This document shows, one piece after another, positions 12,201 through 63,982 of a stretch of 64,000 nt of DNA. Within the stretch, counting starts at the first letter, position 1. Each line of letters opens with the position of its first letter. The stretch spans positions 1,728,001 to 1,792,000 of the forward strand of contig OZ246001.1 of assembly GCA_965230295.1 (NCBI GenBank), written 5' to 3'. The notes under the pieces were generated by a model. It did no database searches. It was not told the DNA's origin and saw only the letters and a program-made list of their open reading frames with translations. The position numbers and the translations under genes were made by a program. The DNA comes from Marinicella sp. (GTDB lineage: Bacteria > Pseudomonadota > Gammaproteobacteria > Xanthomonadales > Marinicellaceae).

Positions 12201-12887
12201 GTGAAAAAAATTCTATGCTTGTTGATCCTGACCTTCTGTAATCCGATTTTGGCTCAGGAATACAGTGCCATGTATCGGGTCACTTTTGTTGGTGATTGGA
12301 CGGCAACCAACCACCCCATTGATTACCCCAACAATGCACATTTTTCTAACTTGATTGGCAGTACTCACAACCAAGTAGGTGGTACCTGGGCCTTGGGTGA
12401 ACTGGCTTCAAGTGGAATAAAGTCGATGGCTGAAGATGGTCTCAACAACTTGTTGATCACAGAAGTCAATGCGCAAATGAGTGCTGGTACAGCAGAAAAT
12501 TTGATTGAAGCGATAGGAGGATATGGAGATGAAACGACCTTTGTCGACTTTGAAATCACGGCATCCCATCCCAGGGTCAGCTTAACCAGTATGATTGCCC
12601 CGAGTCCAGACTGGTTTGTTGGAGTCCATGATTTGAGTTTAATCAACTCAGGAGAGTGGTTGGAGGAACTCATGATTGAACTGTTGCCATACGATGCAGG
12701 GACAGACAGCGGAGCTTCGTTTCGCAGTGAAAATTTTCCAACACAGCCAGCCCAACCCATCAGCCTCATCACCACCCACCCATTACCAGATAACGTTCCT
12801 TTGGGTTATTTGGTGTTTACTCGTTTAAGTACCACAGGCAGTCCACCCGATGAAGTGTTCGTGAGCAATTTTGAGGCCATTGAATGA
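12201..12887 (+). CDS. Secreted Spondin_N domain protein with C-terminal DEVFVSNFE motif
   Basis: Signal peptide; YRVTF..W....HP..YP..AHFS, MIAPSPDWFVGV, YDAGTDSG spondin motifs. Confidence 0.88.
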   Translation: MKKILCLLILTFCNPILAQEYSAMYRVTFVGDWTATNHPIDYPNNAHFSNLIGSTHNQVGGTWALGELASSGIKSMAEDGLNNLLITEVNAQMSAGTAENLIEAIGGYGDETTFVDFEITASHPRVSLTSMIAPSPDWFVGVHDLSLINSGEWLEELMIELLPYDAGTDSGASFRSENFPTQPAQPISLITTHPLPDNVPLGYLVFTRLSTTGSPPDEVFVSNFEAIE

Positions 12888-12893
12888 ACCTCA

Positions 12894-14705
12894 TCATTGA
12901 TCGGTAAATTGTAGTTTGGCCAGCTCAGAGTACAAACTGTTGTTACGAATCAATTGTTCATGTTTGCCTTTGGCCACAATTTTTCCCTGATCCATCACAA
13001 TGATTTGATCGGCTTTGCGTATGGTGGCCAGCCGATGTGCAATGACCAGGGTTGTCCGATCTTTCATGATGCTGTTCAAGGCTTCTTGGACCAGTTTTTC
13101 ACTGTTGGCATCCAAAGCACTGGTGGCTTCATCCAACAACAACACGGGCGGGTTGGTCAACACAGCACGGGCTATGGATAAGCGCTGTGCTTGACCGCCA
13201 GACAACCTGACGCCTCGTTCACCCAAGTATGTGTCGTAGCCTTGATCCAGGTTTTCTATGAATTCATCGGCATGGGCCAAACGCGCCGCTGCTTTGATGG
13301 CTTCATCACTGGCTTCAGGGTTACCGTAGGCAATGTTTTCCCGTGCCGTGCTGGAAAAAATGGTGACGTCTTGTGCCACCAATGAAAATTGAGAACGCAA
13401 GTCATTCAACTTGATGTTTTGAATGTCCTGACCATCTAATTTGATGTGACCAGATTGGGGTTCGTAAAATCTCATCAGCAGCTGGAATAAGGTGGATTTA
13501 CCTGAACCGGATGGTCCAACCAGCGCAACAGTTTGGCCAGGAATGACCTCAAAAGATATGTCTGACAAAACATTCAAGCCGGTGCGGCTGGGGTATGCAA
13601 AATTGACTTGATCAATACTTATGTTACCCAAGATGTCACGGTCGAATTGAAAGGCATCAGCGGCTTCCTGAATGGTGGACTCAGTGTTCATCAACTCAAT
13701 GATTCTTTCCAGGGCTCCTGCGGCTTTTTTCAACTCACTCCAAACGGTTGACAAGGCGCCCACAGAGGTGGCCGCCATGATGGCATACATCACAAACTGA
13801 CTCAGTGTACCGGCAGTCATGTCTCCGGTGATCACATCACGCGCCCCCAACCACAAGACAAAAACAATGCCGCCAAAAATCACGAAACCGACCAGTAAAG
13901 ACATGATTGTGGTCATGCGTATGGAAGCCACAGCGGCTTTGAAAGCGTTATTGATGGCCGTTATGAATTTGTTGTTTTCGAATTGTTCCTGGGCATAGGC
14001 TTGAACAGTGTGCATGGCGTTGATGGTTTCAGTGGCCAGAGCAGAAGAATCAGCAATGCGATCCTGTTCTGCTTTAGAAAGCTTTTGAATGCGCCGCCCT
14101 GTGATGACAATGGGAATCACCACCAAGGGTATCAGGAAAGCGATGTACATCGCCAGTTTAGGGCTGGAAACCACCATCATAAAAGCCGCACCAAAAAAAG
14201 TCACAGCAGAACGCAGGGCAATGGAGAAGGTGCTGCCAACCACGGTTTCAACCAAGGTGGTGTCGGTGTTGATGCGTGACAGAATTTCTCCGGTTTTGGT
14301 TTTTTCAAAAAACTCTTGAGACTGGGTCATGACCTTGGCATAAACCTGTTTACGCAAATCTGTGACTACTTTTTGTCCGATCCATGAGACCCAGAAATAG
14401 CGCAAGGAAGTAAACAAGATCATCAACGATGAAACCACAAACACCAACACAAAATAATAAGACAAGGTGTCTTGGTTTTCAGCAGCAAACCCCAGGTCGA
14501 TCATTTGTTTAAAAGCCACGGGTATGGCCAAATTGGCTGCTGCACCAAGAAACAGCAACAGCAGCGCTAACAGGATGTGCTTTTTGTAGGGAACAATCAG
14601 TGGTTTAATTAACCGCAAATGATTCAAAGAAGCTTTGCTGTTCTCTGCTTCTGATTTGGGTTGATCGTTCAATGTTGTCGTATCCACTTCACTGTGTCCT
14701 GCCAT
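12894..14705 (-). CDS. ABC transporter, fused permease/ATPase (MsbA-like ABCB)
   Basis: Six-TM domain; Walker A GPSGSGKS, LSGGQAQR, LLLDEATSALD, IAHRL. Confidence 0.92.
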   Translation of the reverse strand: MAGHSEVDTTTLNDQPKSEAENSKASLNHLRLIKPLIVPYKKHILLALLLLFLGAAANLAIPVAFKQMIDLGFAAENQDTLSYYFVLVFVVSSLMILFTSLRYFWVSWIGQKVVTDLRKQVYAKVMTQSQEFFEKTKTGEILSRINTDTTLVETVVGSTFSIALRSAVTFFGAAFMMVVSSPKLAMYIAFLIPLVVIPIVITGRRIQKLSKAEQDRIADSSALATETINAMHTVQAYAQEQFENNKFITAINNAFKAAVASIRMTTIMSLLVGFVIFGGIVFVLWLGARDVITGDMTAGTLSQFVMYAIMAATSVGALSTVWSELKKAAGALERIIELMNTESTIQEAADAFQFDRDILGNISIDQVNFAYPSRTGLNVLSDISFEVIPGQTVALVGPSGSGKSTLFQLLMRFYEPQSGHIKLDGQDIQNIKLNDLRSQFSLVAQDVTIFSSTARENIAYGNPEASDEAIKAAARLAHADEFIENLDQGYDTYLGERGVRLSGGQAQRLSIARAVLTNPPVLLLDEATSALDANSEKLVQEALNSIMKDRTTLVIAHRLATIRKADQIIVMDQGKIVAKGKHEQLIRNNSLYSELAKLQFTDQ

Positions 14706-15535
14706 AATGATTTTGCCTCCGGCTTGAAAAAGCCAAAATGTCCAATTGATTCAAGTCCCAAATTCTGCGGGTCAATGATGCGTTTTTCTATGTGCCGCTG
14801 GTCATCATTTACTGTTAAGGACTTGCCATATTCTTCCAACAGCCCGTCAATGGCTGCCTCAGGAGCCATGTCATCATCCGTGAATCCAAAGCACAGTAGT
14901 GGCTTTGCAAAGTGATGCCATGGATTTAAATCAAAACCAAATTTTTGATTAAACAGGTAGTCTTTTTGTTGCCCCCATGAAGCCCATTGCTTGGCAGCTG
15001 CAGACGGCCAGGGATAATTGCCCAAACCCAGTTTGGCTGCATTGAATCGAGGCCCTTTACTCATCCAAGGTACCAACACATGCCACAACAGGTATAGTTT
15101 CATATAACCAGACAGCGGCCACAGCCGCTTATCGCCTTTTTGTGCCGCCACAAGTATCAACCCATCGATGTGGTCGATGTTGTGAGCAAAACCCAACAAT
15201 TGACCACCAATGCTGTGTCCCAAAACCCAAACTTTTTCAGGCTTGAGGCTTGTGCGAACCCAGCCAATAATGGCCGACTGGTCCAACCGCCCCCATGACT
15301 CGGCATTCTGCAGTGCATCATCAGCTAACACATCCATGCCATCTTCCATGCCTCTGTAGTTGTACAAAACCACGGTGAGGCCTTGGGCCGCCATACTGGC
15401 AGCAAAGGCGTGGTAAAGCTTCCGCTTGACTCCAATGGCAGGGTTTACAATCAGGGTGTTGGCAGAGTCAGCCCCGAAAACCTCTAGTTGTAAAGTGACC
15501 TGGTCATTGGTGGTTATGTTGACGGCATCAAACAT
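14669..15535 (-). CDS. Predicted alpha/beta hydrolase (COG4757-like)
   Basis: YNYRG, GHSIGGQ, FTDD, SIGHFGFF motifs. Confidence 0.82.
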   Translation of the reverse strand: MFDAVNITTNDQVTLQLEVFGADSANTLIVNPAIGVKRKLYHAFAASMAAQGLTVVLYNYRGMEDGMDVLADDALQNAESWGRLDQSAIIGWVRTSLKPEKVWVLGHSIGGQLLGFAHNIDHIDGLILVAAQKGDKRLWPLSGYMKLYLLWHVLVPWMSKGPRFNAAKLGLGNYPWPSAAAKQWASWGQQKDYLFNQKFGFDLNPWHHFAKPLLCFGFTDDDMAPEAAIDGLLEEYGKSLTVNDDQRHIEKRIIDPQNLGLESIGHFGFFKPEAKSLWQDTVKWIRQH

Positions 15536-15607
15536 TTAAGAAGGCCTAAAAAATCTTCATTGTAATGGATTACGCAAACAGAATGGTTGGCTGGTTAGGC
15601 AAAAACC

Positions 15608-16234
15608 TCAAGACTTCTTTTGGGCGATCATGAACACGGCTTTTCCGGGTGCGGGTTGCCATTGGTGAATGATGTCAAAATCGGCATTGAGCATAAACCG
15701 TTCCAACGCTTGTTGATCAAACACATGCAAAGTAGGTAACAACCCCAAAAATCGCCCGATGGGCCCCAACCACTTGAAGATTTTCATGGAATCTCCCAAG
15801 CAAGGCGTGGAGGTGACCAACAACCCACCAGGATTCAACATTTGGCTGACTTGTTTGACCACTTGTTGAGTGTTTTTCAATAAGTGCAGGATGCTCAGCC
15901 CCAACACCACATCAAAACGCTGCTCACCCGCATCAAAGTCATCGATGGTGCTGGTTAAGAAATCAATGTTGGTGATGTTTTGTTGTTCGGCTTTGTTTTT
16001 GGCAATGGCAATCATCTGATCTGACACATCGATGGCGGTGATGTGCTCGACAAGTGGCGCATGAATCAATGCTGTTGAGCCAGTGCCACAACCAAACTCG
16101 AACAGTCGCATGTTTGGTTTGAGGTGCTGTTGGGTCAGATTGAGCTTTTGTTCGTAAACGGCTTGATCAGGCACCGGACGCTTGGCGTATTTGGCGGCAT
16201 GTCGGTTCCAAAATTTTTGGTCGAAGTTTTTCAT
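15608..16234 (-). CDS. Class I SAM-dependent methyltransferase
   Basis: FEFGCGTG SAM motif, IDVS, SILHLL, LNPGG. Confidence 0.88.
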   Translation of the reverse strand: MKNFDQKFWNRHAAKYAKRPVPDQAVYEQKLNLTQQHLKPNMRLFEFGCGTGSTALIHAPLVEHITAIDVSDQMIAIAKNKAEQQNITNIDFLTSTIDDFDAGEQRFDVVLGLSILHLLKNTQQVVKQVSQMLNPGGLLVTSTPCLGDSMKIFKWLGPIGRFLGLLPTLHVFDQQALERFMLNADFDIIHQWQPAPGKAVFMIAQKKS

Positions 16235-16271
16235 TGATTTGTTTCATTTTTTGGGTTGATTCCATTATATG

Positions 16272-16330
16272 CATGCAAAACAGAATAAAAATATGATATT
16301 TTGTATGTAATCCATGCAAATATGAATAAA
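16272..16330. promoter_or_regulatory. Duplicated imperfect palindrome, candidate LysR operator sites
   Basis: CATGCAAAACAGAATAAA(16272-16289) and CATGCAAATATGAATAAA(16313-16330), 15/18 identical, between divergent methyltransferase and LysR genes. Confidence 0.55.
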
Positions 16331-17226
16331 TGAGCGCTCTCAATTCACAGTTCAATTGGAACCAGGCCAAAGCATTTCTCTTAACTGCTCAAACCGGTTC
16401 TTTATCTGCTGCTGCACACCTACTGAAAGTGTCCCAACCGACCTTGGGCCGTCAGGTCAGCGCCTTAGAATCGGCACTGGGCGTGGTGCTGTTTGAGCGG
16501 GTGGGGCGTGGCCTGTCGTTAACGCCCAGTGGCCAAGAGCTGTTGGAGCATGTACAACACATGAATGAGGCAGCCAATCAGTTCATGCTCACAGCCACCG
16601 GCCAAAATAAACAATTGGCTGGCGAAGTTTGTATCACCGCCACCGATGTGCTGGCCTATTTTATCTTACCGCCTATACTTGCAAAACTTCGACGGCTGGA
16701 ACCGGGTATTCATATCGAGGTGATTGCCAGTAATGCGGCCAGTGACCTGCTGCGTCGGGAAGCCGACATTGCGGTGCGTTCTTTCAGGCCCACACAAGCT
16801 GATTTGGTGGCCAAGAAATTGGCCGATGTCGAAGCATTTTTGTATGCCACCCCAGGATACCTGGCGAGTTTAAATGATCCGAAAAACATGATGGAATTCA
16901 ATCAGGCCGACTTCATTGGTTTTGTGAACAACGATCCGTATCAAGAAGCCTTGAATGAGATGGGTTTTGAGCTCACAGCAGAGAATTTTCCTGTAGTTTG
17001 TGAAAACCACCTCATCCATTGGGAATTGACCAAACAGGGTGTGGGTATAGGAGTGATGCCGTTACAAGTGGGCAGCCAGGAACCGTTGGTCAAGCCCATT
17101 TTGCCTGATTTGCCAGGACACACTTCAGAATTGTGGTTGGTAGCCCACAGGGAAGTCAGGACCAGTCGCCGCGTAAGAAGGGTGTTTGATTTTTTGTCTG
17201 ATCAACTGATGCACATAGAAGTGTAA
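16330..17226 (+). CDS. LysR family transcriptional regulator
   Basis: HTH GSLSAAAHLLKVSQPTLGRQVSALE, LFER; READIAVR. Confidence 0.93.
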   Translation: MSALNSQFNWNQAKAFLLTAQTGSLSAAAHLLKVSQPTLGRQVSALESALGVVLFERVGRGLSLTPSGQELLEHVQHMNEAANQFMLTATGQNKQLAGEVCITATDVLAYFILPPILAKLRRLEPGIHIEVIASNAASDLLRREADIAVRSFRPTQADLVAKKLADVEAFLYATPGYLASLNDPKNMMEFNQADFIGFVNNDPYQEALNEMGFELTAENFPVVCENHLIHWELTKQGVGIGVMPLQVGSQEPLVKPILPDLPGHTSELWLVAHREVRTSRRVRRVFDFLSDQLMHIEV

Positions 17227-17241
17227 AGATCATGCCATCAG

Positions 17242-17709
17242 TCACATTTGTGACTGCAGGTAATTTTCCAAACCAGTCAACTTGATCAAACGCAATTGTT
17301 TTTCCAGCCAATAGGCGTGATCAGTTTCGGTGTCATCCAGCAGCACCAATAACTGGTCCCGAGTGACGTAATCTTGTTCTTGCTCACACAAGGCCATGAC
17401 TTTTTTCAACGCTTTTTGTACACCATATTCGATGTCCAGATCACTTTGCAGCATGGCGGGTACGGTAGCGCCAATGTTCAGGCCATCTCGTTTAGACAGG
17501 TCAGGCTTGCCTTCAAGGAAGAGGATGCGTTCAATCAAAACGGCCGCATGGCCTTTTTCATCATCAAACTCATGATCAATGCGCTCATAGAGCTTGTTTA
17601 AGCCCATGTCTTCATACATTCTGGAGTGAACAAAGTATTGGTCCATGGCGGTTAATTCGTAAACCAGGAGCTCATTCAGTGCATTGATGATTTGAGGGTT
17701 GCCTTTCAT
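17242..17709 (-). CDS. bfr: Bacterioferritin, ferroxidase-type subunit lacking the heme Met52
   Basis: E18 (YELTAMDQY), E51/H54 in DEKGH with Lys at position 52, E94 (DIEY), E127/H130-equivalent (ETDH). Confidence 0.88.
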   Translation of the reverse strand: MKGNPQIINALNELLVYELTAMDQYFVHSRMYEDMGLNKLYERIDHEFDDEKGHAAVLIERILFLEGKPDLSKRDGLNIGATVPAMLQSDLDIEYGVQKALKKVMALCEQEQDYVTRDQLLVLLDDTETDHAYWLEKQLRLIKLTGLENYLQSQM

Positions 17710-18182
17710 TCGTTGTCTCCAATTTGAGCTTGTAGGTAGTTTTGTAAACCCACGTCATCAATCAATGAAACTTGGGTTTCGTGCCAGTCTATCAGTTCCT
17801 CTTCATGCGCCAAATGGGAGCTGAGTAAGTCACGGCTGACATAATCTTGGGCCGCTTCACAGGTGGTTATGGCTGTTTTGATAACTTGGTGTTGATTGGC
17901 CAGGAATTCACTGTTGCACTTGATCACTTCAGCCGTGTCTTCTCCAATGTTCAATTTACCCAGCTTTTGTAAATTGGGTAAACCACCCAGCAACAGTATG
18001 CGTTCGATCAAATCATCGGCATGCTTCATGTCTTTGATGGATTTTTTATAAAAGACTTCATCCAATTCAGCAAAGCCCCAATCCTTGGTCATGCGAGCAT
18101 GTAAAAAGAACTGATTGATGGAAGTCAATTTACTGGTTAATACCAGATTAAGTGTGGTGTGGATACTGCTGTCAATGTTCAT
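17706..18182 (-). CDS. bfr: Bacterioferritin, heme-binding subunit with degenerate ferroxidase centre
   Basis: SKLTSINQFFLHARM (E18->K), DMKHAD retains Met52, C-terminal EEEL lacks His130. Confidence 0.88.
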   Translation of the reverse strand: MNIDSSIHTTLNLVLTSKLTSINQFFLHARMTKDWGFAELDEVFYKKSIKDMKHADDLIERILLLGGLPNLQKLGKLNIGEDTAEVIKCNSEFLANQHQVIKTAITTCEAAQDYVSRDLLSSHLAHEEELIDWHETQVSLIDDVGLQNYLQAQIGDNE

Positions 18183-18387
18183 GTTGTTGTGAGTTTTTGT
18201 AATAGTTGGATTCTAGATTGTTTTGTTGGCAAAGTCAAAAAATACATTTAATTTCAACCACTTAATACGTAACAAGAATCACTTTCATTTGTGTTTAGTT
18301 TTCTATTCTGGGTGAATGTATTCGTTCTCAGGCAAGCGTGTGCGATAATAAAAGCAGTCAATGTAAACAACATCAACCGGAGTCATT

Positions 18388-18822
18388 GTGTCAAACAACA
18401 AAACCCAAGCAACCGAAGCCAGTGTGATTAAATTCCTCACGGCGGTGTCACCAGAACACAAAAGACAAGATGCGTTCACCTTGTTGGAAATGATGGAAAG
18501 ACTGTCCGGCTATCAGGCTAAAATGTGGGGTCCAAGTATCGTGGGTTTTGGCCAGTACCATTACCGATATGACTCAGGACGAGAAGGCGATTTCATGCGC
18601 ATCGGTTTTTCACCCCGAAAAGCCAACATTTCTTTGTACATCATCACAGGGGTTAAACGGTACCCAGAGCTTTTGGACCAATTGGGCAAGCACAAAACAG
18701 GCAAATCATGTCTTTATGTCAATAAACTGAAAGACATCAAGTTGAACGTATTGGAACAGCTGATCAGTAAAGAATTGGCTTACATGGCAGAAAAGTACCC
18801 AGAAGACATACCATCAAGATAA
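18388..18822 (+). CDS. DUF1801 (YdhG-like) protein
   Basis: KMWGPSIVGFGQYHYRYDSGREG, GFSPRK, LGKHKTGKSCLY; GTG start with GGAG. Confidence 0.88.
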   Translation: MSNNKTQATEASVIKFLTAVSPEHKRQDAFTLLEMMERLSGYQAKMWGPSIVGFGQYHYRYDSGREGDFMRIGFSPRKANISLYIITGVKRYPELLDQLGKHKTGKSCLYVNKLKDIKLNVLEQLISKELAYMAEKYPEDIPSR

Positions 18823-18824
18823 CC

Positions 18825-19658
18825 ATGAAGACGTTGCCCAAAATCACCTGGGGTGATGCCAACGATCAACCCCCCATTTACTTTGCCCATGCCAACGGCT
18901 ATCCACCAGGCAGTTACCAATCGATCATCGATGCCTTGTCTACAGACCACCAGGTTGTATCGTATTTACAAAGGCCGCTGTGGCAACCCGCACCTGATGT
19001 CATGAGTATCCAGTCATGGCATGAGCTGGCAGATGATGTGATTCAATTTTTTGACCAGAACCACATGAAAAATGTGGTGGCTGTGGGCCATTCATTGGGT
19101 TCTGTAACGGCTTTTATGGCAGCCCAAAAAAGACCCGATCTGATCAAAGCATTGGTGATGATTGAACCTGTAGCCCTGCCTTGGATTTTTTGTTGGTTGA
19201 CACAGGTTTTTCCAGGTTTGGTCAGGCAGCGAGTCAGCATCATCCGCAAAGCCTTGAAGCGACCCAATCAATTTACTGATTTAGCAGCCGCCTTTGATTT
19301 CCACCGCAAACCACGGGTGTTTGGTCGCATCAGTGATGAAAACTTGTGGCATTACATCCGCGCCGGTGTGGTTCAACAAGGTGAAAACTATCGACTGGCA
19401 TATCCGCGTGAGTGGGAGGCCAGGATTTATGCCACAGCGACCTATTTCAGAGGTCAGTTGATTCATTCAAAACTGCCGGTTCTGGGTCTGAGAGGAGGTC
19501 ATTCAGATACGGTCGATGCCAAGTTTTGGCGTCGTTGGCAGCGCAATGATAACCACCAACACATTGAATTTCCAGAAGCGGGCCATTTACTGCCATTGGA
19601 AAACCCAGCGGCGGTGATTGAAGCCATCATGCCATTTGTGGAGCGTCACCAAAGATGA
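18825..19658 (+). CDS. Alpha/beta fold hydrolase
   Basis: FAHANGY, GHSLG, GHLLPLE. Confidence 0.87.
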   Translation: MKTLPKITWGDANDQPPIYFAHANGYPPGSYQSIIDALSTDHQVVSYLQRPLWQPAPDVMSIQSWHELADDVIQFFDQNHMKNVVAVGHSLGSVTAFMAAQKRPDLIKALVMIEPVALPWIFCWLTQVFPGLVRQRVSIIRKALKRPNQFTDLAAAFDFHRKPRVFGRISDENLWHYIRAGVVQQGENYRLAYPREWEARIYATATYFRGQLIHSKLPVLGLRGGHSDTVDAKFWRRWQRNDNHQHIEFPEAGHLLPLENPAAVIEAIMPFVERHQR

Positions 19659-21181: not shown

Positions 21182-21247
21182 TGCAATAAATGTGAGGCTT
21201 GTGTGACACGCCATACCAATCAACAATCTCTGCTATAATCATTGGCC

Positions 21248-23243: not shown

Positions 23244-23336
23244 ACCCAAGAAACGGACAAGTTGAGATTAATGTTACTCAACAAGCATTTTTCGTTTTAT
23301 AATCATAAATAGGCCGTTGTCGACTCAGGAGTTAGC

Positions 23337-24065: not shown

Positions 24066-24137
24066 ACCTTGTTTCTCAGAGCCACGGGCTACTGTTTATA
24101 AGCCCAGTCATAAGATCAAAAAAAAATTTGAAAGCTG

Positions 24138-25892: not shown

Positions 25893-25894
25893 TG

Positions 25895-26293: not shown

Positions 26294-26344
26294 AAACGGC
26301 TTTGGTATTGCAATGATAAGTTGATGATACAGAAAAAAAACTTG

Positions 26345-35418: not shown

Positions 35419-37347
35419 TTACCAACCGCCGCCACCTCCGCCGCCACCGCCACCACCTGATGAACCACCGGAAGATGAACTGCCTGAGGAGTAGCTGCTT
35501 GAAGAACCAGAGCGGCTGGATGAATAAGACCTTGAAGAAGCGCTGCGAGGGGCGCTGGGTATGGTTGTAGATCTGGCCACATGGCTTTTCATTGATCGGG
35601 TCAAGTTGCTGATGGAAGTGTTGAAATCAGAATGCGGGGTGTATTCAGAATGCAGCCACTTGGGTTGAAAAGTGCTGCCATGACCACTGTTCTGTTCAGC
35701 TTGTGAATGGAGGGTATTGGTGAATTTTTTGGCCCATTGGTTTTCTAAATTCAAAGCCACCGCATAGGGCAATAACTCTTCATAATGTTCAAGGGTTTTG
35801 TCTGGCGGGTTCATCAAATCCAGGCGCTGTTCTTCTGCAGCTTTCATATACAATTTCAAGCCATCGATTTGATCCTTTAAATGTCGGCCAAATGGAGTGG
35901 GTGCGCGAAGGAGGTATGTGAACAGGCCATTGATGGTCAACAAAAACAGCACAAAATACAACCACTTTTGGTGTTCTAGCAACCAGTAAAAAATATCCAT
36001 ATAATGAGAAGCCAGTATGAACAGCAGCAGTATACCCATAAAAATAGGCGCGGCAGCAAGAAAGGCCAAGGCGATGCTGATGATCACCACAAAACCGATC
36101 AATATGGCTAACAATTCTCCCAGGTTTAAATGTTGCTGGTATATCAACAAGGTACCAATGAAAAAACACACCACACTGATCAGCCAACCACACAACACAT
36201 AGAAACCATTGTCTTTGAAACACCGGTTTTGATATTCTTTTTTTAGCTTGCTGTTCAAAGCATTCTTGGCATATCTCACTGAGGAATTGTATTGCTTGCT
36301 GATGGTGATGTGGCGACTGCGATCAGAAAACAGTTGTTGTTTGACTGACTTTTCACCACTTGAAAGTGGCGTTTTGGGGCGTTCTTTGATTAATTTTATG
36401 CGGTACTGTTTTTTCAGTTGAGTGATTTTGAGACAGCCCTTAACAGCCATACTCACTAAAGCCGCCACAAAGGTTTGGTCGTTGGCATGTCCATTATCGA
36501 TGTAGTGAACGGCTGCCGGAGACAGGCCTTTGGGCGGTTTGAATCGGGCCATGATGACGCCAGGATCCGGATCTATGCCATATCGAAACCAAGCGGATAA
36601 GTAAAAACCCACATAAAACAATGCGGTGACCAATGCCAACAACCACAGCACATTGTTCTTAATGAATCCGAGCCAATCAAAAGGTTTTGGGTTTAACAGG
36701 CCTTTGGCAAATTGGATGCCCACCGTCAAGCCCTGATAGGGTTCGAGCCGTTGGGAGGTTTTGAAGCCCAAAGTATCAGCTGTGTTCGCAACAACAAAGT
36801 TTTGATCTTGTTCGCCTTGGTAGCCAGTCCATGCTGATTGATCCAATACCAGGTTTAAGCCACCACCTGGTAAGGTGACAGAAACCGATGCTTCTTGAAT
36901 AGGAAAGGCCCACCCTGTACCAGTGACATTCCAATAAAATTCATCGTAGTTATCAAAATATCCAAGTTGTTGGTCGGTGGTGTAAACCAGTTGGTATTGG
37001 TGTAGGCCTGGATCTAGATATGCCGATGATGACCCCATGTAAATCCGAATGCCATTGGTGAGTTTTTCAGTGTGGAAAGGCTCAGCTTCACCATTACGGG
37101 TGACAGATTTCACATCGAAACCCACTTGTTTTTGTGTCAACCAGGCTCCGAAGTATTGGGTTGGAAAATCGCGATAAATGCCGCGATTGATCTCGCGTCT
37201 TTCAGCGTTGACTTCTATGGACTCGGTGACTGTGATCTGCCCAGAAGGGTGGATCATGATGTCGCTGTGAAAAGAAGTGATTAACTCCTCAGCATGGGCG
37301 TTGGCCAGTAACAACCAGGATAACAACAAAAAACACAGACGCATCAT
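35419..37347 (-). CDS. DUF2207 membrane protein
   Basis: RGIYRDFP, DEFYWNVTG..WAFPI, YEELLPYAVAL, Ser/Gly-rich tail ending GGGGGGW. Confidence 0.9.
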   Translation of the reverse strand: MMRLCFLLLSWLLLANAHAEELITSFHSDIMIHPSGQITVTESIEVNAERREINRGIYRDFPTQYFGAWLTQKQVGFDVKSVTRNGEAEPFHTEKLTNGIRIYMGSSSAYLDPGLHQYQLVYTTDQQLGYFDNYDEFYWNVTGTGWAFPIQEASVSVTLPGGGLNLVLDQSAWTGYQGEQDQNFVVANTADTLGFKTSQRLEPYQGLTVGIQFAKGLLNPKPFDWLGFIKNNVLWLLALVTALFYVGFYLSAWFRYGIDPDPGVIMARFKPPKGLSPAAVHYIDNGHANDQTFVAALVSMAVKGCLKITQLKKQYRIKLIKERPKTPLSSGEKSVKQQLFSDRSRHITISKQYNSSVRYAKNALNSKLKKEYQNRCFKDNGFYVLCGWLISVVCFFIGTLLIYQQHLNLGELLAILIGFVVIISIALAFLAAAPIFMGILLLFILASHYMDIFYWLLEHQKWLYFVLFLLTINGLFTYLLRAPTPFGRHLKDQIDGLKLYMKAAEEQRLDLMNPPDKTLEHYEELLPYAVALNLENQWAKKFTNTLHSQAEQNSGHGSTFQPKWLHSEYTPHSDFNTSISNLTRSMKSHVARSTTIPSAPRSASSRSYSSSRSGSSSSYSSGSSSSGGSSGGGGGGGGGGGW

Positions 37348-41633: not shown

Positions 41634-42164
41634 ATGATCATGAAGAATGTGTATGTATTGATCACACTGTTACTGCTGGCGCAGCCTTTGAGTGCACAAT
41701 TTCCACCATTAGAAATCAATTTGGATCAAGTGGAAGCTTCGGTTAATGGCTTGGCAGAGGCCTCCCTTCGCGCCGGCACCAATTGGCAAAACATCACCGA
41801 AATCAGAGGCAGCATCATTTTTGATCCAATGGTTGTTGATGAACCGGTGTTGATCTTTTGGGGCCTCTCTAACCCGGGCGGCGCTTTGATTCAGGACCAA
41901 GGTGGAGGCGTGTTGACCTACCAGTGGGAATCGTTGATTTCCATTGGCCCCACATTGAACCCGGGAGATGTCGTATTCACTTTACAGTTTGAAGTAACTG
42001 GCGGTGTTGGCAGTGCCACACCATTGGATTTCAGCAGTACTCCTGAACCACTGTTTTGGGCCAATGGATTCGGATGGTCAGGGAACAACCACTCGATCAG
42101 CAATGGATCAGTCACGATCGTGGTCGGTGATGATTTGATTTTCAAATCGGACTTTGACCCATAA
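41634..42164 (+). CDS. Secreted single cohesin-like beta-sandwich protein with C-terminal DLIFKSDFD motif
   Basis: Signal peptide (PLSA/Q); I.FDP.V, GVLTYQW, VVFTLQFEVTG.VGSATPLDF, NGSVTI resemble type II cohesin-like domains. Confidence 0.6.
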   Translation: MIMKNVYVLITLLLLAQPLSAQFPPLEINLDQVEASVNGLAEASLRAGTNWQNITEIRGSIIFDPMVVDEPVLIFWGLSNPGGALIQDQGGGVLTYQWESLISIGPTLNPGDVVFTLQFEVTGGVGSATPLDFSSTPEPLFWANGFGWSGNNHSISNGSVTIVVGDDLIFKSDFDP

Positions 42165-56251: not shown

Positions 56252-56374
56252 GCGCGCATTCTACCAAAATTCATTCAATGAAGGGGTGCCAAAAGGCATG
56301 AAGGTTTAAGAACATACCTTTTGCTAACACCGGGTTTTGGAGGGTGCGATGGCCGTCGAGAAGCCTGCCAAATG

Positions 56375-57136: not shown

Positions 57137-57240
57137 GAATGATTCCCTCTGTTGTATTTGCAGTGCTCATTGTAGGTACAATTCTTGAATCTCATGTTAA
57201 CATGCGGACATTCATTTTGTGAACTGGATCAAGTCCAACG

Positions 57241-59295
57241 GTGCCAAAGAAAAAAGCAACCAAAAGTAAAATCAAGAAATACCTGTTCAAGTCCGTGCTG
57301 TTCATGGTGGGGCTCATGGCCGGGCTGGTGGTGCCTTGGTATTTTTACATCAATTACATCACAGACACCATCGTTCAAGACCGATGGGACATACCCTCGG
57401 TGGTCTATGCGCGTCCCTTGGAGTTGTATCAAGGGCTCACGTTGTCACCACAAGCATTGACCTTTGAGCTGGATTTGTTGGGCTATCAGCCCACTGCAGA
57501 CGCACCCAACCCTGGCCAATATAAACGTGAGGGCAAGCGTTATTGGATCCACAGTAAAGGTTTTGAGTTTCCAGATGCTGCTGCCAAAGCGCAATTGATT
57601 GAATTCTCTTTGAATGGGCCATCCATCCAATCCATCACCCCAAAACTGGCCAGGTTGGAACCGCCGATCATTGGTCGTTTTTTCACCACAGACTTTGAAA
57701 ATCGTTTGCCAATTAAACTGGCGGAGATTCCTGACAGCATGATTCGTGGCTTGCAAGCAGTCGAAGACCGTGACTTCAAAAACCACCACGGCGTTTCCTG
57801 GTGGGGTATCATGCGAGCTGCTGTTAAAAACTTAATGGCAGGAGAAGTGGTACAAGGTGGCAGCACCATCACCCAACAGCTGATCAAGAATAAATTACAT
57901 TACAGTCAAAACAGTTTGTTGCGAAAGTTGCATGAAGCCCTGGCGGCAACTTTGTTGGAAACCAAGTTAAGCAAAGCACAAATATTAGAGTCTTACTTTA
58001 ATGAAGTTTATTGGGGTCAAGATGGCAAAGTGGCTGTCCATGGGGTGGTTGAAGCAGCTCAGTATTATTTTGCCAAACCTGTGGCTCGTTTGAATTTGGC
58101 AGAGCAGGCCTTGCTGGTGGGCATCATCAAAGGCCCTTCCTGGTACAACCCATACCGCCAAACCAAACGGGCCTTATTGCGCCGCAATGTGGTGTTAAAA
58201 AGTTGGTTGGAAACCGGGGTCATCAATGCAGCGCAGCACCAAAAAGCCACGCATTTGCCGCTGGGGTTGTCTAAAAGTCGACAGTTGAAAACGGACTTTG
58301 ACGATTACATGGATGTGGTGAAGCGGCAGATTAAAAAGCAGTTTTCTTTACAAGACTTGAAAAGCAATGGATTGAGGATTTTCACCAGTATGGATCCATT
58401 TGTGCAATACAAGACCACCCAAACGGCCAAAAAAACCAGCGATTGGCTGTCTGATGATGTAGAAAGTGCCATCCTGGTCAGTGGTGCAAAGAATGGTGAA
58501 TTATTGGCTGTAACGGGATCGAAATCAGCGCGTTCGCATTACAACAGGGCCTTGTTAGCAAAACGTCAAATTGGCTCTTTAATCAAACCTTTGGTTTATT
58601 TAGCAGGTCTCGAGTTGTTGTCAGGGTTCAATCTGGATGAAACGTTACAAGATGAGCCATTGCAGGTAACCACTGCAGACAACAAAACTTGGCAGCCTAA
58701 CAATTGGGACCGGCAGAGCTTGGGAGCCATCAGTGCCGCTACCGCATTGATTCAATCCCGCAACCAAGCCACTGTCGATTTAGGCTTGCGCATTAACTTG
58801 AATCGTTTCATTGCCTTTCTGAAACAGTTGGGACTACAAGTTCAACGCAACAACCACCCAGCCTTGTTTCTTGGAGCCATTGAGCTGACACCATTTGAAG
58901 TCCAGCATTTATTTGGGATATTTGCATCTCGAGGAGCCAACCAATACATCAATTCTATCCGTTATGTGACCGATCAAAATAACCAAATTCTCAGTCGTTC
59001 ACAACAATCAATGAACCATGACCTGGCGGTCGGCAACATTGACACCATCAATTGGGCCATGCATCAAATCACCATCGAAGGGACCGCTAAAAAATTAACC
59101 CATGCATTCGAATTGGCTGGTCCCATGTTTGGCAAGACGGGCACCACCAATGACGGTAAAGACAGTTGGTTTGCTGGCTTCACACATGATTATTTGGTCA
59201 CTGTTTGGGTTGGCAGAGATGACAACAAACCGACACCCTATTCGGGCAGTAATGGTGCTTTGATCCTGTGGGGGCATTTGTTCAAAAACCTTTGA
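57241..59295 (+). CDS. mrcB: Penicillin-binding protein 1B
   Basis: TM, UB2H (VYARPLEL), GT51 EDRDF/GGSTITQQL, transpeptidase SLIK, SRN, KTGT. Confidence 0.9.
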   Translation: MPKKKATKSKIKKYLFKSVLFMVGLMAGLVVPWYFYINYITDTIVQDRWDIPSVVYARPLELYQGLTLSPQALTFELDLLGYQPTADAPNPGQYKREGKRYWIHSKGFEFPDAAAKAQLIEFSLNGPSIQSITPKLARLEPPIIGRFFTTDFENRLPIKLAEIPDSMIRGLQAVEDRDFKNHHGVSWWGIMRAAVKNLMAGEVVQGGSTITQQLIKNKLHYSQNSLLRKLHEALAATLLETKLSKAQILESYFNEVYWGQDGKVAVHGVVEAAQYYFAKPVARLNLAEQALLVGIIKGPSWYNPYRQTKRALLRRNVVLKSWLETGVINAAQHQKATHLPLGLSKSRQLKTDFDDYMDVVKRQIKKQFSLQDLKSNGLRIFTSMDPFVQYKTTQTAKKTSDWLSDDVESAILVSGAKNGELLAVTGSKSARSHYNRALLAKRQIGSLIKPLVYLAGLELLSGFNLDETLQDEPLQVTTADNKTWQPNNWDRQSLGAISAATALIQSRNQATVDLGLRINLNRFIAFLKQLGLQVQRNNHPALFLGAIELTPFEVQHLFGIFASRGANQYINSIRYVTDQNNQILSRSQQSMNHDLAVGNIDTINWAMHQITIEGTAKKLTHAFELAGPMFGKTGTTNDGKDSWFAGFTHDYLVTVWVGRDDNKPTPYSGSNGALILWGHLFKNL

Positions 59296-59356
59296 TACAC
59301 GGCCTTTCTGAACCATGGTACGACCTTTGGGATTTTGAAAAATTTGTATTGATGGC

Positions 59357-59384
59357 TTGATAAATCGGCGTTTAAAGCTATGAT
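59357..59384 (+). promoter_or_regulatory. sigma70-like promoter immediately before the TPR lipoprotein gene
   Basis: TTGATA-16 bp-TATGAT; ATG 8 nt downstream; no SD. Confidence 0.5.
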
Positions 59385-59392
59385 TAAGCGCT

Positions 59393-59893
59393 ATGTCAAA
59401 ACACAACCCCACAACCCCTCTGAAAATCTTTGGTATTGTTACGGTGGCTGTTCTATTAAGTCACTGTAGTTACAAACGTGTGGACGTAGAAAAAGATGTC
59501 CGCGAGCCTGCCAGAGACAATGATTCACTGATTCAAGTTTCACCGATGGTGCCAGCCGCTGTGTATGCCTTGATCAACGAAGCAGACATGCAAATGAGTG
59601 ATGGTCAAGTTAAGCTTGCCATTCTGACATTAAAAAGGGCCTTATCGATCAGCCCGGCCTCCGCTTTGGTGCAACAACATTTGTCAGAAGCTTATTTGTC
59701 AGATGCTGATTACAAGCAAGCCCTGTATTGGTCTACATTGGTGGTCAACCAGGGCCCTGATCAGGGAGCTTTGTGTGAACGATCCAGGCGAACCCAAGCG
59801 TTGGCAGCAGAATTGTTGAATGAAGTGGTGGTTCAGGCCCAGGCTTTGGATGCCATTGCTGAATGCACCACCAAAAAGCCGGCGCGCTTTTGA
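59393..59893 (+). CDS. TPR lipoprotein, LpoP-like candidate PBP1B activator
   Basis: Lipobox-like LLSH-C; TPR-like A..TLKRALSISP...LSEAY; directly downstream of mrcB. Confidence 0.65.
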   Translation: MSKHNPTTPLKIFGIVTVAVLLSHCSYKRVDVEKDVREPARDNDSLIQVSPMVPAAVYALINEADMQMSDGQVKLAILTLKRALSISPASALVQQHLSEAYLSDADYKQALYWSTLVVNQGPDQGALCERSRRTQALAAELLNEVVVQAQALDAIAECTTKKPARF

Positions 59894-61803
59894 TGCATAC
59901 AATCGAGCAGGTGCTGGGTGAAGGTGGGTTATTTGAGCAACAAATAGACTCTTTCAAACCCCGTTCTCAGCAGTTGGCTATGGCTGAACACATTGCGGCC
60001 GTGATGGCTGACCAACACATCCTGATTGCTGAAGCTGGTACGGGTACGGGAAAAACCTATGCCTATTTAATTCCGGCACTGATCTCTGGTCAAAAAATCA
60101 TCGTTTCTACCGGTACCAAAACCCTCCAGGACCAGTTGTTCACCAAAGACATACCTCTGCTGTTGGATTTGTTGAGCCTAAAACCCAAAGTGAGGTTACT
60201 TAAAGGCCGCAACAATTACCTGTGTTTAGACAGGTACCATAAATCGGCGCTGATGCCCGTCAGTCGCTATCCAGAAAACAAGGCACTATTTGGCCACTTG
60301 AAAAACTGGATTCACCAAACCAACAGTGGTGAAATCGCTGAGTTGACTGAATACATTGAAAACCGCATGATGTTATCCAACATCACATCAACCCCGGAAA
60401 ATTGTTTGGGTTCTGATTGTGATCATTACAATGATTGTTTTGTCTACAAAGCCAGGCGCCGGGCTTTGGATGCGGATTTACTGGTGATCAACCACCATTT
60501 GTTGTTTGCTGATATGGCGATCAAACAAGGGGGTTTTGGCGAGCTGTTACCGAAAGCAGATGTGATGGTGTTGGATGAATCGCACCAAATTCCAGAAATT
60601 GCCGGACGTTTTTTCAGTCAATTGTTCAGTTCCCGACAATGCAGTGAATTACTCAATGACCTGCTGACAGAAGCCGGAGAGGTGGATGCGGCTTTTGCTG
60701 CCATCAGCGAACCACATGAACAGATGAAAAGGGCTTTGCGAGACACTTTGTTGTCGATGAGTCAAATGCCAGAACGAGAGAGCACCAAACGTTTGTTCCA
60801 AACCCCAATCATCATTGAGGTGTTTGACTTATTGATGCACCACATGGGCTTATTGGTGAATGCCTTAGAACCACTGGTGGTACAAAGCACAGGCCTGCAG
60901 AATTGTTATTTACGTTTGACGGCTTTGGGTGATTTGTTACAAGACATGATGCAACAAGGTGAGTCCAATTTTATTTATTGGTTCGAGGCCAGGGACAAGT
61001 ATTTTGCCTTACACAAATCCCCGTTAGACATTGCTGATCCACTGCGAGAATTCAGGGCGGCTTTTGATACGGCATGGGTGATGACTTCAGCGACTTTAAC
61101 GGTTAATAACAGTTTTGAACATTTTCAACAACAGACCGGGTTTGATGATGCCCAGACATTGTTGTTAGACAGCCCGTTTGATTACCAAAAACAGGCTTTG
61201 ATGTTGTTGCCAAAAAACCTGCCAGAACCCAATGACTATGAGTTCAATCCGGCCATGTTTGAATATGTTTTGCCCTTGATAGAACAAGCCAAAGGCGGGG
61301 TGTTTTTCTTGTTCACTTCACACCGGTCATTACAAATGGCTGCACACTTCTTCAAAGCAAAAACCCACAAGCCGCTGTTTGTTCAAGGCACGGCTGATCG
61401 CAATCAAATGCTCGAGGATTTCAGGGCCGCGGGCAATGGTTTGTTGCTGGGTGCCGCCAGTTTCTGGGAAGGCGTTGATGTTTCAGGGACCAGCCTCAGT
61501 TGTGTCATCATCGATAAACTGCCATTTGCCCATCCCAGTGAACCGGTGTTGAAAGCCAAGATCGAGCACATCAACAAACAGGGTGGCAAGGCATTTTATG
61601 ATTTACAAATTCCCAAAGCCATCATTGCCTTGAAACAGGGTGCCGGGCGGTTGATCAGAGGCGAACAAGACCATGGTGTTTTGGTCATTTGTGACCGCAG
61701 AATCACCAGCAAAGGATATGGACCCTTGTTCCTAAAATCGCTGCCAAATATGCAAATCAGTCATGACCTTGAAACAGCCCTGAGCTTTTTAGCCGAGTTG
61801 TAG
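59893..61803 (+). CDS. yoaA: DinG/YoaA family Fe-S DNA helicase
   Basis: EAGTGTGKT, KGRNNYLC, C....C....C cluster, DESH, SAT, FWEGVD, QGAGRLIR. Confidence 0.88.
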   Translation: MHTIEQVLGEGGLFEQQIDSFKPRSQQLAMAEHIAAVMADQHILIAEAGTGTGKTYAYLIPALISGQKIIVSTGTKTLQDQLFTKDIPLLLDLLSLKPKVRLLKGRNNYLCLDRYHKSALMPVSRYPENKALFGHLKNWIHQTNSGEIAELTEYIENRMMLSNITSTPENCLGSDCDHYNDCFVYKARRRALDADLLVINHHLLFADMAIKQGGFGELLPKADVMVLDESHQIPEIAGRFFSQLFSSRQCSELLNDLLTEAGEVDAAFAAISEPHEQMKRALRDTLLSMSQMPERESTKRLFQTPIIIEVFDLLMHHMGLLVNALEPLVVQSTGLQNCYLRLTALGDLLQDMMQQGESNFIYWFEARDKYFALHKSPLDIADPLREFRAAFDTAWVMTSATLTVNNSFEHFQQQTGFDDAQTLLLDSPFDYQKQALMLLPKNLPEPNDYEFNPAMFEYVLPLIEQAKGGVFFLFTSHRSLQMAAHFFKAKTHKPLFVQGTADRNQMLEDFRAAGNGLLLGAASFWEGVDVSGTSLSCVIIDKLPFAHPSEPVLKAKIEHINKQGGKAFYDLQIPKAIIALKQGAGRLIRGEQDHGVLVICDRRITSKGYGPLFLKSLPNMQISHDLETALSFLAEL

Positions 61804-61870
61804 AGGGACTATTGGCTAAAAAACATCACAATTCACAGAAAATTAAGCCCATCCGTGTTAATTTCTAGTC

Positions 61871-63982
61871 ATGGTCCGGACATTGTATTTACAGATAATC
61901 GTCATTAGCATGCTTGGTTGGTCTTTTGCCAGCCAGTCTCAATCGAAGGTGTCTGGTTGGCAGGTGGATACTGTGCACGGTCCTTCACAACAAGGCATTG
62001 CTGACAGCATAGCATTGGATTTCAACCAGGATGGTCGATTGGATGTGGCTTCAGTGTCATACAACGATGGTCACTTAAGGCTGTATTTAAATCAAGGCAA
62101 CCTCGTTTTTGATCAACAGATCATCAGCACAGATTTATTTGGCGCATTTCGAATCGTCAAAGCAGATTTGAATGACGACAATGAATTTGACTTTATAGTC
62201 CCATCGATAGAGACTTCTGAAATCATTGCCGTGATGAGTGGTCCTGATGGACATGAAAAGCAAGTCATTGCTTCAGGTGTGTTGGTTCCCAGTGATGCCC
62301 AGGTTGGGTTTCTCAATGACGATGATTTATTGGATGTGGCAAGCACTTCATTTCAGGAGGGATTGCTGCTGGCACATCTACAACAAATCGATGGCAGTTT
62401 TGAAACCGAAATCATTTCAGATGTGCCTGTAAACCCCAGAAAAATGGTGCTTGAAGATTTCGATAACGATGGCTTGGTTGATGTGTTGTTGGCCTCATCA
62501 GGTGACGATTCAATCAGGCTTTTCACAAAGCAGCAAAATGATGGGTATGTTGAGACATTGATCAGCAACCAAGCCCTGGGTACCAGGTACACGGAATCTT
62601 GTGACGTCAATGGCGACATGTTACCTGATTTTGTGGTTTCAGCATCAGACGCAAACACCATCTGGGTCTATACAAATTTGGGGTCTAACACATTCAGTCA
62701 AACAGAGCTGGACAATGATGTGGCAGGGGTTCGTTCCTTGTACTGTGTTGACATTGATGATGACGGTCAGCAAGAATTACTCAACTTAGCAGCAGTCACC
62801 GGGGTGATTTATGCCCATGAATTGAAGGGCCCAGTCAACAGGGTTGAAGTGGCCAGTAACAGAGATGGGTATGTCAATGTCAAAGCAGGGGTGTTTACAG
62901 GTGATCAAACAAGCTTATTAACCCAAACGTTTTTTGATAACAGAAATTTGTTGTATGACCCGCTATCAACCAATCAAGAACAAGTGGTTTGGGAAGATTT
63001 TCCAGATGGGGCCAGTGATGTCAAAATGGGAGACATCAACAATGACGGGGTGGAAGATTTGGTGGCATCCAGTTTCAGAGACGATCGGGTGCAATGGTAT
63101 GATGGCACAACCTTTCAACATCACATCATAGCTGAAAATATAGATGGGGCCGCAGAGGTTTTGGTGGTTGATCTGGATGATGACGGATGGGTGGATGTGT
63201 TGTCAGCCGCTTCTTTTGCCAACACTTTTTATTGGCATCGAAATACCGGCAATGAGGTGTTCAATACCTTGGTCATTTTCGACGATGCGCGTTTTGCCAA
63301 TGGATTGGCTGTCGCTGATCTTGATGAAGATGGCCAATTAGATGTGGTCGGGACTTCAGGTTCTGATGACAGTGTCAGGTTGTTTACCCGCAATGGCGTG
63401 TCATTCACTGTACAGTTGCTTGATGACCAAAATGATGCCCCCAATGAGGTCAAAATATATGATATGGACGGAGACATGGATCTTGATTTGGTGGTTCCAT
63501 ATACGTTCTCTGACGAGTTGGTGATGTATGAAAATTTGGGAGGTGCTTTTAGCAGCCAAGTTCTGGCATCAAACCTGGACAGGATTGACTCCACCGCAAT
63601 AACCGACATCAACAATGATGGGTTCATGGATATATTGGCCAGTGTTGCTGGAGATGATGTGGTGGTTAAGTTGATCAATCAAGCCAATGGTGTATTCGTG
63701 CAAGAACCATTGATTCAAGACATTGAAACGCCTAAGAGAATCAAGTTCAATTCAGCCACCCCATACAATTTTTTACAAACCAACTTTTTCCCGAATGGTG
63801 TTGAAGTTGCTTCCATTTATAACTTAGGCGGGGTTCCCGGTGATTATGGTGACTTGTTGTTCGAGTTCAGCAATGCATTGTCCAACTCCAGTCACGTTTT
63901 TTTGGCTTCTTTGCAAGATTTGATTTATGCTGATGGATTTCAAACACAACAAGCCTTCACTCTTGATATTGACCATCCATAA
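61871..63982 (+). CDS. Secreted FG-GAP/VCBS repeat protein with near-terminal DLIYADGFQ motif
   Basis: Signal peptide; many DxDxDG..D repeats (DFNQDGRLD, DFDNDGLVD, DINNDGVED, DLDEDGQLD, DMDGDMDLD). Confidence 0.9.
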   Translation: MVRTLYLQIIVISMLGWSFASQSQSKVSGWQVDTVHGPSQQGIADSIALDFNQDGRLDVASVSYNDGHLRLYLNQGNLVFDQQIISTDLFGAFRIVKADLNDDNEFDFIVPSIETSEIIAVMSGPDGHEKQVIASGVLVPSDAQVGFLNDDDLLDVASTSFQEGLLLAHLQQIDGSFETEIISDVPVNPRKMVLEDFDNDGLVDVLLASSGDDSIRLFTKQQNDGYVETLISNQALGTRYTESCDVNGDMLPDFVVSASDANTIWVYTNLGSNTFSQTELDNDVAGVRSLYCVDIDDDGQQELLNLAAVTGVIYAHELKGPVNRVEVASNRDGYVNVKAGVFTGDQTSLLTQTFFDNRNLLYDPLSTNQEQVVWEDFPDGASDVKMGDINNDGVEDLVASSFRDDRVQWYDGTTFQHHIIAENIDGAAEVLVVDLDDDGWVDVLSAASFANTFYWHRNTGNEVFNTLVIFDDARFANGLAVADLDEDGQLDVVGTSGSDDSVRLFTRNGVSFTVQLLDDQNDAPNEVKIYDMDGDMDLDLVVPYTFSDELVMYENLGGAFSSQVLASNLDRIDSTAITDINNDGFMDILASVAGDDVVVKLINQANGVFVQEPLIQDIETPKRIKFNSATPYNFLQTNFFPNGVEVASIYNLGGVPGDYGDLLFEFSNALSNSSHVFLASLQDLIYADGFQTQQAFTLDIDHP

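Follow-up and report, generated by a model that had tools for sequence, protein, structure and literature searches.

Within a 64,000-nucleotide stretch of the genome of a Marinicella sp. (GenBank assembly GCA_965230295.1, contig OZ246001.1, positions 1,728,001 to 1,792,000; hereafter the window), three exported proteins of unrelated architecture end in nearly the same nine residues, and the question that this raises is what such a shared ending, which we call the tag, does for the proteins that bear it. Across the order to which this genome belongs, tags occur almost only alongside a classical type II secretion system (T2SS) whose GspC has a PDZ domain. The reading that we place first, with a little less than even confidence, is that cargo of this order's classical (Gsp-type) T2SS is targeted by the nonapeptide, a portable linear signal at or near the C-terminus, possibly with the GspC PDZ domain as its reader.

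The first of the three tagged cargo proteins, P0001, is a 228-aa exported Spondin_N-domain protein (12201..12887, plus strand; Pfam PF06468, Spond_N, E 1.9e-48) with the tag copy DEVFVSNFE at 12849..12875 (plus strand; profile score 16.3), followed by AIE and the stop codon. P0002, an exported protein of 176 aa (41634..42164, plus strand), has the copy DLIFKSDFD at 42132..42158 (plus strand; profile score 25.7), then P and the stop, and P0003, an exported FG-GAP repeat protein of 703 aa (61871..63982, plus strand; FG-GAP_3 E 5.7e-43, 8 stretches), has the copy DLIYADGFQ at 63917..63943 (plus strand; profile score 23.5), then 12 residues and the stop. Translation gives the three motifs where an earlier note on this DNA had placed them, 3, 1 and 12 residues before the stop. 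That note had also credited all three proteins with an N-terminal signal peptide, which can be read from the sequence in each case; a crude signal-peptide heuristic picked up two but not P0002, whose signal peptide by eye is MIMKNVYVLITLLLLAQPLSAQ. The extracellular domains proposed there were recovered by Pfam for P0001 (Spond_N) and P0003 (FG-GAP_3/FG-GAP), but the label "cohesin-like" for P0002 was not confirmed, as its translation had no match in Pfam (E<=0.01) or NCBIfam (E<=1). Among the 58 open reading frames (ORFs) of the window, 15 of which are heuristic-positive for a signal peptide, the motif is restricted to these three proteins at a profile score of at least 8.

In an AlphaFold2 (AF2) model of P0001 (pLDDT 90.5, from a 44-sequence alignment), the last strand of the domain spans residues 202-212, and the tail of residues 213-228, including the tag, is coil with confidence dropping to 54. 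As modelled, the tail of P0001 is flexible and not part of the fold; the short beta-strand that the earlier note had pictured for the tag is replaced in this model by coil of falling confidence.

Scale, form and cargo of the tag

The window's own genome (G000; G, f and g numbers denote the genomes, families and genera of the compared set) is a single contig of 4,008,074 bp with 44% G+C, in which 3393 ORFs, each 80 aa or longer and none overlapping another, were called directly from the sequence, without a gene finder. The strict pattern D.[IVL][FY]...F[DEQ] occurs 115 times in these ORFs, with 100 copies no more than 12 residues from the C-terminus and 59 exactly terminal, compared with means of 7.84, 0.24 and 0.04, respectively, in within-protein shuffles (n = 50). 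The whole-proteome scan proposed in the earlier note thus places the motif at C-termini far above chance (100 vs 0.24). Among the terminal dipeptides of the G000 proteome, FE ranks first (56) and FD third (37). A nine-column profile built from the 100 C-terminal seed copies (a hit being a score of at least 12) returned 145 hits in G000, comprising 132 C-terminal copies (69 of them exactly terminal), 3 just after the signal peptide and 10 internal. The consensus is D-[LV]-I-F-x-[DSN]-[GD]-F-[ED], and the last residue is E in 60, D in 34 and Q in 6 of the seeds. Since the 69 tags that end their protein exactly are encoded by 68 different DNA sequences, and neither the preceding 30 nt nor the following 40 nt are conserved, what is conserved is the protein and not a DNA repeat. 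The tail sequences bear out that the tagged C-termini contain neither a transmembrane (TM) helix nor a basic tail.

Single-linkage clustering of the 132 tagged proteins at E<=1e-5, with the tag removed, gives 73 clusters, 56 of them singletons. The signal-peptide heuristic was positive for 109/132 tagged and 849/3261 untagged ORFs of G000, the enrichment among signal-peptide proteins that the earlier note had set out to have checked, and most of the 23 misses among the tagged ORFs have a signal peptide visible by eye. The tag is therefore a real, abundant, genome-wide C-terminal element on unrelated signal-peptide proteins. No Pfam or NCBIfam model covers it in the three window proteins, nor does any Pfam model in 25 further tagged proteins, and searches by motif text and by topic, with supplements outside their reach, returned no published description of the tag or of a linear T2SS signal in Xanthomonadales; it is uncatalogued, being in neither these models nor the literature found.

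Nearly all tagged proteins carry Sec signal peptides, and two (g909 and g2928) carry Tat-type RRxFL signals, so that the tag acts after export and is present also on cargo that is exported in a folded state. Such cargo fits a machine whose substrates are folded proteins in the periplasm, which is how the T2SS is described (PMC12369372). A Pfam scan, which covered 25 of the 32 tagged proteins lying in the fetched loci, found extracellular-type domains in 17 (DUF285, FG-GAP, CotH+LTD, LRR, trypsin-like, Calx-beta, LamG and fn3) and no Pfam family in the remaining 8.

The homologues of P0001 allow the tag to be compared with other endings of the same domain. Among the best 120 of the 2346 homologues at E<=1e-10, the tag directly follows the end of the Spondin_N domain in 38, at the same place, right behind "...RLSTTGxPP". 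Some of the others in this set end at the domain end, five carry the C-terminal domain (CTD) of the type IX secretion system (T9SS; PF18962/PF13860), and in four or five the tail is hydrophobic and basic, like that of PEP-CTERM proteins. Judging from these homologues, the position behind the Spondin_N domain appears to be a slot for a sorting signal, occupied by the tag, a T9SS CTD, a PEP-CTERM-like tail or nothing. The named homologues are Marinicella and "Xanthomonadales bacterium" records, in agreement with the earlier note, which had placed such endings in Marinicella/Dokdonella-type bacteria. Separately, many metagenomic Spondin_N homologues of ~350 aa (P0041-P0063 and others) share another conserved terminus, reading ...LLMEQLVNVAGLECE or ...LVGIAGSPCE, which looks like another uncatalogued C-terminal ending.

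A few Spondin_N homologues, one of them named Acidobacteriota, end in a longer form of the tag, ...FFDGFESGDLSNWS..., and such forms raise the alternative that the tag signals nothing and is the leftover first beta-strand of a lost jelly-roll or LamG-like domain of the "F-x-D-G-F-E-S-G-D-x-S-x-W" type. The longer form ...LVFFDGFESGDLSNWS... ends P0070, P0074, P0085 and P0086, including an Acidobacteriota protein, one G000 protein ends ...DAVFSDGFESGDTSAWSASCP, and strings similar to the longer form open some carbohydrate-binding modules. A leftover strand is nevertheless difficult to reconcile with the 59 strict copies that stop right after residue nine in unrelated proteins, or with conservation at the protein rather than the DNA level; moreover, neutral remnants would decay, and the distribution of the tag tracks a secretion system. 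We regard this origin as highly improbable.

Co-occurrence with the classical type II secretion system

The distribution of the tag was mapped at the DNA level with a pattern of the tag plus a stop codon, which gives 50 hits in G000. In 298 genomes of other families in the class there was at most one hit each (21 genomes had one), and because a reversed-pattern control gave similar numbers there, a single hit per genome is treated as noise. Across the 301 genomes of the order, the distribution is patchy: the window's own family is tagged throughout (41 genomes, 3-71 hits each), as is f3 (8 genomes, 2-20 hits each), in f12 the hits number 12-24 in some genera and most genera have none, 1 of the 41 genomes of f2 is positive, and numbers are low in f4, f7, f9 and f11.

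Three secretins are encoded in G000, namely PilQ, that of an Xps-type T2SS cluster (GspM_b, MshEN-type ATPase) and that of a classical T2SS. Of the genes of the latter, gspC-D-E-F lie together at C1:654-660 kb, gspG-K form a second locus at 2.608 Mb and gspL-M a third at 2.630 Mb, so that C-D-E-F, G-K and L-M are all accounted for, with GspH-K and GspM assigned by position and N-terminal sequence only; the order gspC-D-E-F-ftsE-ftsX is kept in several families. G000 GspC consists of HR (T2SSC) and PDZ_2 domains and has OutC (E 4.4e-33), PulC and EpsC as its closest solved relatives, the next-best solved relatives of its PDZ domain being the PDZ domains of DegP/DegQ. In the Xps-type cluster (C1:854000-858000), the secretin gene is followed by genes for a peptidylprolyl isomerase and for three proteins of 143, 472 and 419 aa that match no Pfam family.

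A search with G000 GspC gave matches in 24/24 tag-bearing and 6/26 tag-free genomes of a panel; four of the six tag-free matches are real GspC, all from f7, and two are weak. A GspC profile of 15 orthologues (alignment A1) was run over the 301 genomes of the order, and GspC was scored as present at E<=1e-15, a cut-off chosen because every genome yields weak hits to the PDZ domain only. Tallied by hand, with tags counted as present from two tag-plus-stop hits upwards, genomes with tags had GspC in 126 cases and lacked it in 5, and genomes without tags had it in 65 and lacked it in 105; with the threshold lowered to at least one hit, the four numbers in the same order were 155, 11, 36 and 99. 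Expressed from either side, 126/131 genomes with at least two tags have GspC, and 5/110 GspC-less genomes have at least two tags, namely G290, G162 and G151 (81, 77 and 90% complete), G146 and G259. GspL (PF05134) followed the same pattern as GspC in 56 genomes, the weak hits of tag-free genomes adjoining the Xps cluster. The earlier note had supposed that some secretion or docking apparatus reads the tag and had proposed profiling motif counts across genomes; such profiling finds the tags together with classical T2SS genes, and co-occurrence in 301 genomes gives that apparatus a concrete candidate, the classical GspC(PDZ)-type T2SS.

Because the genomes are related to one another, we place weight on contrasts within families and not on a P-value. 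In f12, the 9 tag-bearing genomes out of 40 are exactly the 9 with GspC, and one genus of this family is split, with both tags and GspC in G095 and neither in G079. The sole tag-bearer among the 41 genomes of f2, G136, is also the sole genome there with a strong GspC match (1.2e-78). In f8, G283 combines 10 tags with GspC, and 35/40 genomes have neither. The cargo itself behaves similarly: a tagged G095 protein of 854 aa has 14 matches in G052 and 16 in G231, both GspC-positive, and none in the GspC-negative G079, G043 and G111, in which a 660-aa tagged G095 protein also has no protein match. When the tagged loci of G095 were compared with G079 at the DNA level, only flanking genes matched, at 70-80% identity, a divergence too great for blastn to show that the cargo is absent.

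Other machines did not follow the tag. The marker of the Xps-type T2SS, T2SSM_b (PF10741), is present in 48/50 panel genomes irrespective of tags and so does not discriminate, and the f2 genomes that have only the Xps-type T2SS, although rich in secreted proteins, include none with at least two tags (0/40). PEP-CTERM/exosortase was rejected since PF09721 is absent from G000 and occurs in 10/25 tag-bearing and 7/26 tag-free panel genomes, and the tagged tails have no hydrophobic helix. For GlyGly-CTERM/rhombosortase, which likewise involves a TM helix that these tails lack, the best G000 hit reached 60.9 bits against the TIGR03902 cut-off of 84 and belongs with the generic rhomboids. No LPXTG occurs in the tags, and sortase is found in 15/24 tag-bearing and 8/26 tag-free panel genomes, with one in G000; the single G000 sortase gene lies ~3 kb from the gene of a protein with two tandem tags (PIIFKSGFE-G-DLIFATGFE) and 11 further residues (C1:1120140-1124372). 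A T9SS C-terminal sorting domain was rejected because no CTD model matched the 3 window proteins or the 25 further tagged ones and the conserved part is only 9 residues long, a type I secretion C-terminal signal because tagged proteins bear Sec/Tat signal peptides (109/132 by the heuristic, most others by eye), and the beta-signal of outer-membrane proteins because the tag ends in E, D or Q after Phe and not in an aromatic residue, on cargo with soluble-type domains. In twenty 20-kb loci around tags of low-tag genomes, no recurrent non-cargo neighbour gene was present.

It is against this distribution that a second alternative must be set, namely that the reader is an envelope component unrelated to the T2SS, or that the tag acts alone on a metal or surface polymer through its three acidic residues, and that its link with the T2SS reflects shared ancestry and lifestyle among lineages rich in secreted proteins. 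There are indeed exceptions in both directions, as G259, G146 and G019 have tags but no GspC, and 65 genomes have GspC but no tags; whole cargo families are absent from GspC-negative genomes, as expected of genes that travel together, and the control families are few. Shared ancestry, however, accounts poorly for the exact match of tags and GspC in f12 (9/9 with and 31/31 without) and f2 (1/1), for the split within one genus, for the lack of tags in the Xps-only f2 genomes and for the failure of the other machines compared to track the tag. We consider such an unrelated reader unlikely, at roughly one chance in five.

Reading of the tag and its relation to known signals

If the tag directs proteins to the T2SS, tagged proteins would fold once Sec or Tat had brought them into the periplasm, the tail, being unstructured, would remain exposed and bring the protein to the classical T2SS, and the GspC PDZ domain would possibly read it. 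From co-occurrence we infer that tagged proteins are secreted by the T2SS and, more weakly, that the tag binds the PDZ domain of GspC. That this domain is the most probable reader of the predicted signal is a tentative proposal, which we would sooner doubt than accept, and the same degree of doubt attaches to the fuller claim that the nine-residue C-terminal peptide is sufficient and transferable as a classical-T2SS signal read by GspC PDZ.

T2SS cargo is described as arriving via Sec or Tat and folding in the periplasm, and PDZ domains as canonically binding extreme C-termini (PMC12369372). According to the same 2025 paper, there is no linear universal T2SS signal and the role of the GspC PDZ domain is poorly understood, the EpsC PDZ domain being needed for VesB only and that of OutC for a subset of pectate lyases (PMC12369372). 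In the EpsC-VesB Ig-fold and OutC PDZ-PelI Fn3 loop cases, a PDZ-bearing GspC selects a subset of the cargo, and the kinship of G000 GspC with OutC, PulC and EpsC is clear. These known PDZ-dependent determinants are structural features of folded domains, whereas the candidate here is a linear portable nonapeptide on >100 proteins.

GlyGly-CTERM/rhombosortase, known from VesB, VesA and VesC of Vibrio cholerae, resembles the tag in that a short C-terminal motif is found on many unrelated exported proteins and is co-distributed with the T2SS. Species with GlyGly-CTERM are reported generally to possess a T2SS, with GlyGly-CTERM proteins as its cargo (PMC3237569), and secretion of VesB is described as needing the PDZ domain of GspC (EpsC) (PMC12369372). 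The GlyGly-CTERM, however, has three parts, a Gly/Ser motif, a TM helix and a basic tail, and is cleaved by an intramembrane rhomboid protease, whereas the tag has 9 residues and no TM helix; and the PDZ-dependent information of VesB lies in its Ig-fold and not in its C-terminal motif, unlike what we propose for the tag. PEP-CTERM/exosortase and LPXTG/sortase share with the tag the C-terminal place and the many-to-one logic, but have a motif, a TM helix and a basic tail where the tag does not. The T9SS CTD of Bacteroidota (PF18962/TIGR04183) is likewise a C-terminal add-on to unrelated Sec-exported proteins and takes the same Spondin_N slot, but it is a folded beta-sandwich that directs proteins across the outer membrane by a different machine, whereas the tag is unstructured in the model. 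T9SS CTDs are roughly 70-100 residues long, and the tag, with a conserved part of 9 residues and no CTD model matched, is indeed far shorter, as the earlier note had said. A further likeness is to DegS/DegP, in which a periplasmic PDZ domain senses the aromatic-rich extreme C-terminus of outer-membrane proteins; those ligands end in an aromatic residue (Y-x-F) and signal misfolding, whereas the tag ends in Asp/Glu after Phe and sits on folded cargo.

Several observations weigh against a T2SS signal read by GspC. A classical T2SS is not sufficient for tags, as 65/191 GspC-positive genomes have 0-1 strict tags, including 29/41 of f7, and the f2 genus g51 has a distant GspC (E about 1e-20) and zero tags. 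Nor is it strictly necessary, since G259 has two perfect tags (DLIFRDGFE-stop and DTIFLDGFE-stop), G146 two good tags and G019 one, all without GspC or GspL. Canonical PDZ ligands have a hydrophobic residue at C-terminal position 0, whereas the tag ends in Asp or Glu; only 69/132 tags are exactly terminal, with 1-12 further residues behind the others, and another 13 copies lie internally or near the N-terminus. With E/D/Q at position 0 and trailing residues on 63/132 tags, a canonical PDZ ligand was rejected, which lowers the claim of a classical PDZ ligand and not that of reading by a PDZ domain. In an alignment of GspC PDZ domains (20 sequences, tag-rich and tag-poor families), no obvious residue discriminated between the two groups. 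Tagged ORFs lay within 13 kb of gspC in 3/20 loci, which is about chance at these tag densities, and in G095, G136, G283 and G012 the tags are dispersed and not clustered with T2SS genes. Furthermore, since the genomes are related and few control families were compared, another co-inherited gene could be the true reader. A complex prediction for GspC residues 45-287 (A1) with a 40-residue tagged tail (A2) scored 0.00 in two runs and weighs neither way.

The precedent of GlyGly-CTERM, which is described as conferring membrane association with translocation needing a second signal (PMC13393428), also supplies the model for a different role, in which the tag marks T2SS cargo but is auxiliary to its secretion, holding the protein at the membrane or surface before or after transit or being processed, with a partner such as an enzyme, an outer-membrane protein or a surface glycan as its reader. 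T2SS cargo whose motif gives membrane association only is thus a documented arrangement (PMC3237569, PMC13393428). The same co-occurrence of tag and T2SS would be expected, adhesin-like cargo (FG-GAP, LRR, Calx-beta and Spondin_N) fits retention at the surface, and the trailing 1-12 residues and the internal copies would be tolerated. On the other hand, no candidate for such a reader emerges: G000 is without exosortase or an above-cut-off rhombosortase, sortase is missing in 9/24 tag-bearing genomes, the tag has no TM helix by which to be seated in the membrane, and the 20 loci of low-tag genomes have no recurrent neighbour gene. We judge an auxiliary role to have about a one-in-four chance. 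Targeting to the T2SS is accordingly ranked first, auxiliary anchoring or processing next and an unrelated reader third.

The choice of cargo by the T2SS is a question decades old. If the tag is a sufficient and transferable signal that the GspC PDZ domain reads, it would be the first linear T2SS signal and would provide a defined ligand for that domain. A causal link with the T2SS would also supply a simple rule to predict the T2SS secretomes of these bacteria and a small tag to send recombinant proteins out of Gram-negative cells. The order offers a natural system, with >100 unrelated proteins per genome sharing one short tail that tracks one type of T2SS, and if the link is causal, a peptide, the PDZ domain and a reporter fusion would suffice as a test system. 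If the link is not causal, the tag would still be an uncatalogued sorting-type signal on about 4% of called ORFs.

Variant endings and neighbouring genes

In three large G000 proteins (C1:3172793-3178705, C1:1421560-1424421 and C1:1502239-1506363), the tag is internal and is followed by a common C-terminal domain of ~85-90 aa, which has a W-x-x-E-x-L ... G-D-x-D-G-D-G-x-x-N motif with a thrombospondin-type-3-like acidic loop; the tag in these proteins is a domain boundary and not the end. In a set of tandem FG-GAP paralogues (C1:3803983-3814879), the tag is extended by a constant two positions, Cys and one more residue (...GF[DEG]-C-[INM]). Several G000 proteins have recurrent "-TPAP" or "-APAP" ends, some of them behind the tag (DLIFADGFDTPAP and DLIYADGYDTPAP) and others following Cys in large proteins with an internal tag (...CEAPAP and ...CTPAP), and these may be a second short C-terminal motif.

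At C1:3018107-3030812 of G000, two paralogous small proteins with tags, of 333 and 335 aa and with unusual N-termini rich in Gly, are each encoded beside a large untagged protein (764 and 729 aa), and the start of the 764-aa protein resembles a winged-helix regulator. In the window itself, a 642-aa ORF at 35419-37347 on the minus strand has a signal-peptide-like start and an end made of eleven glycines and a final Trp (...GSSGGGGGGGGGGGW).

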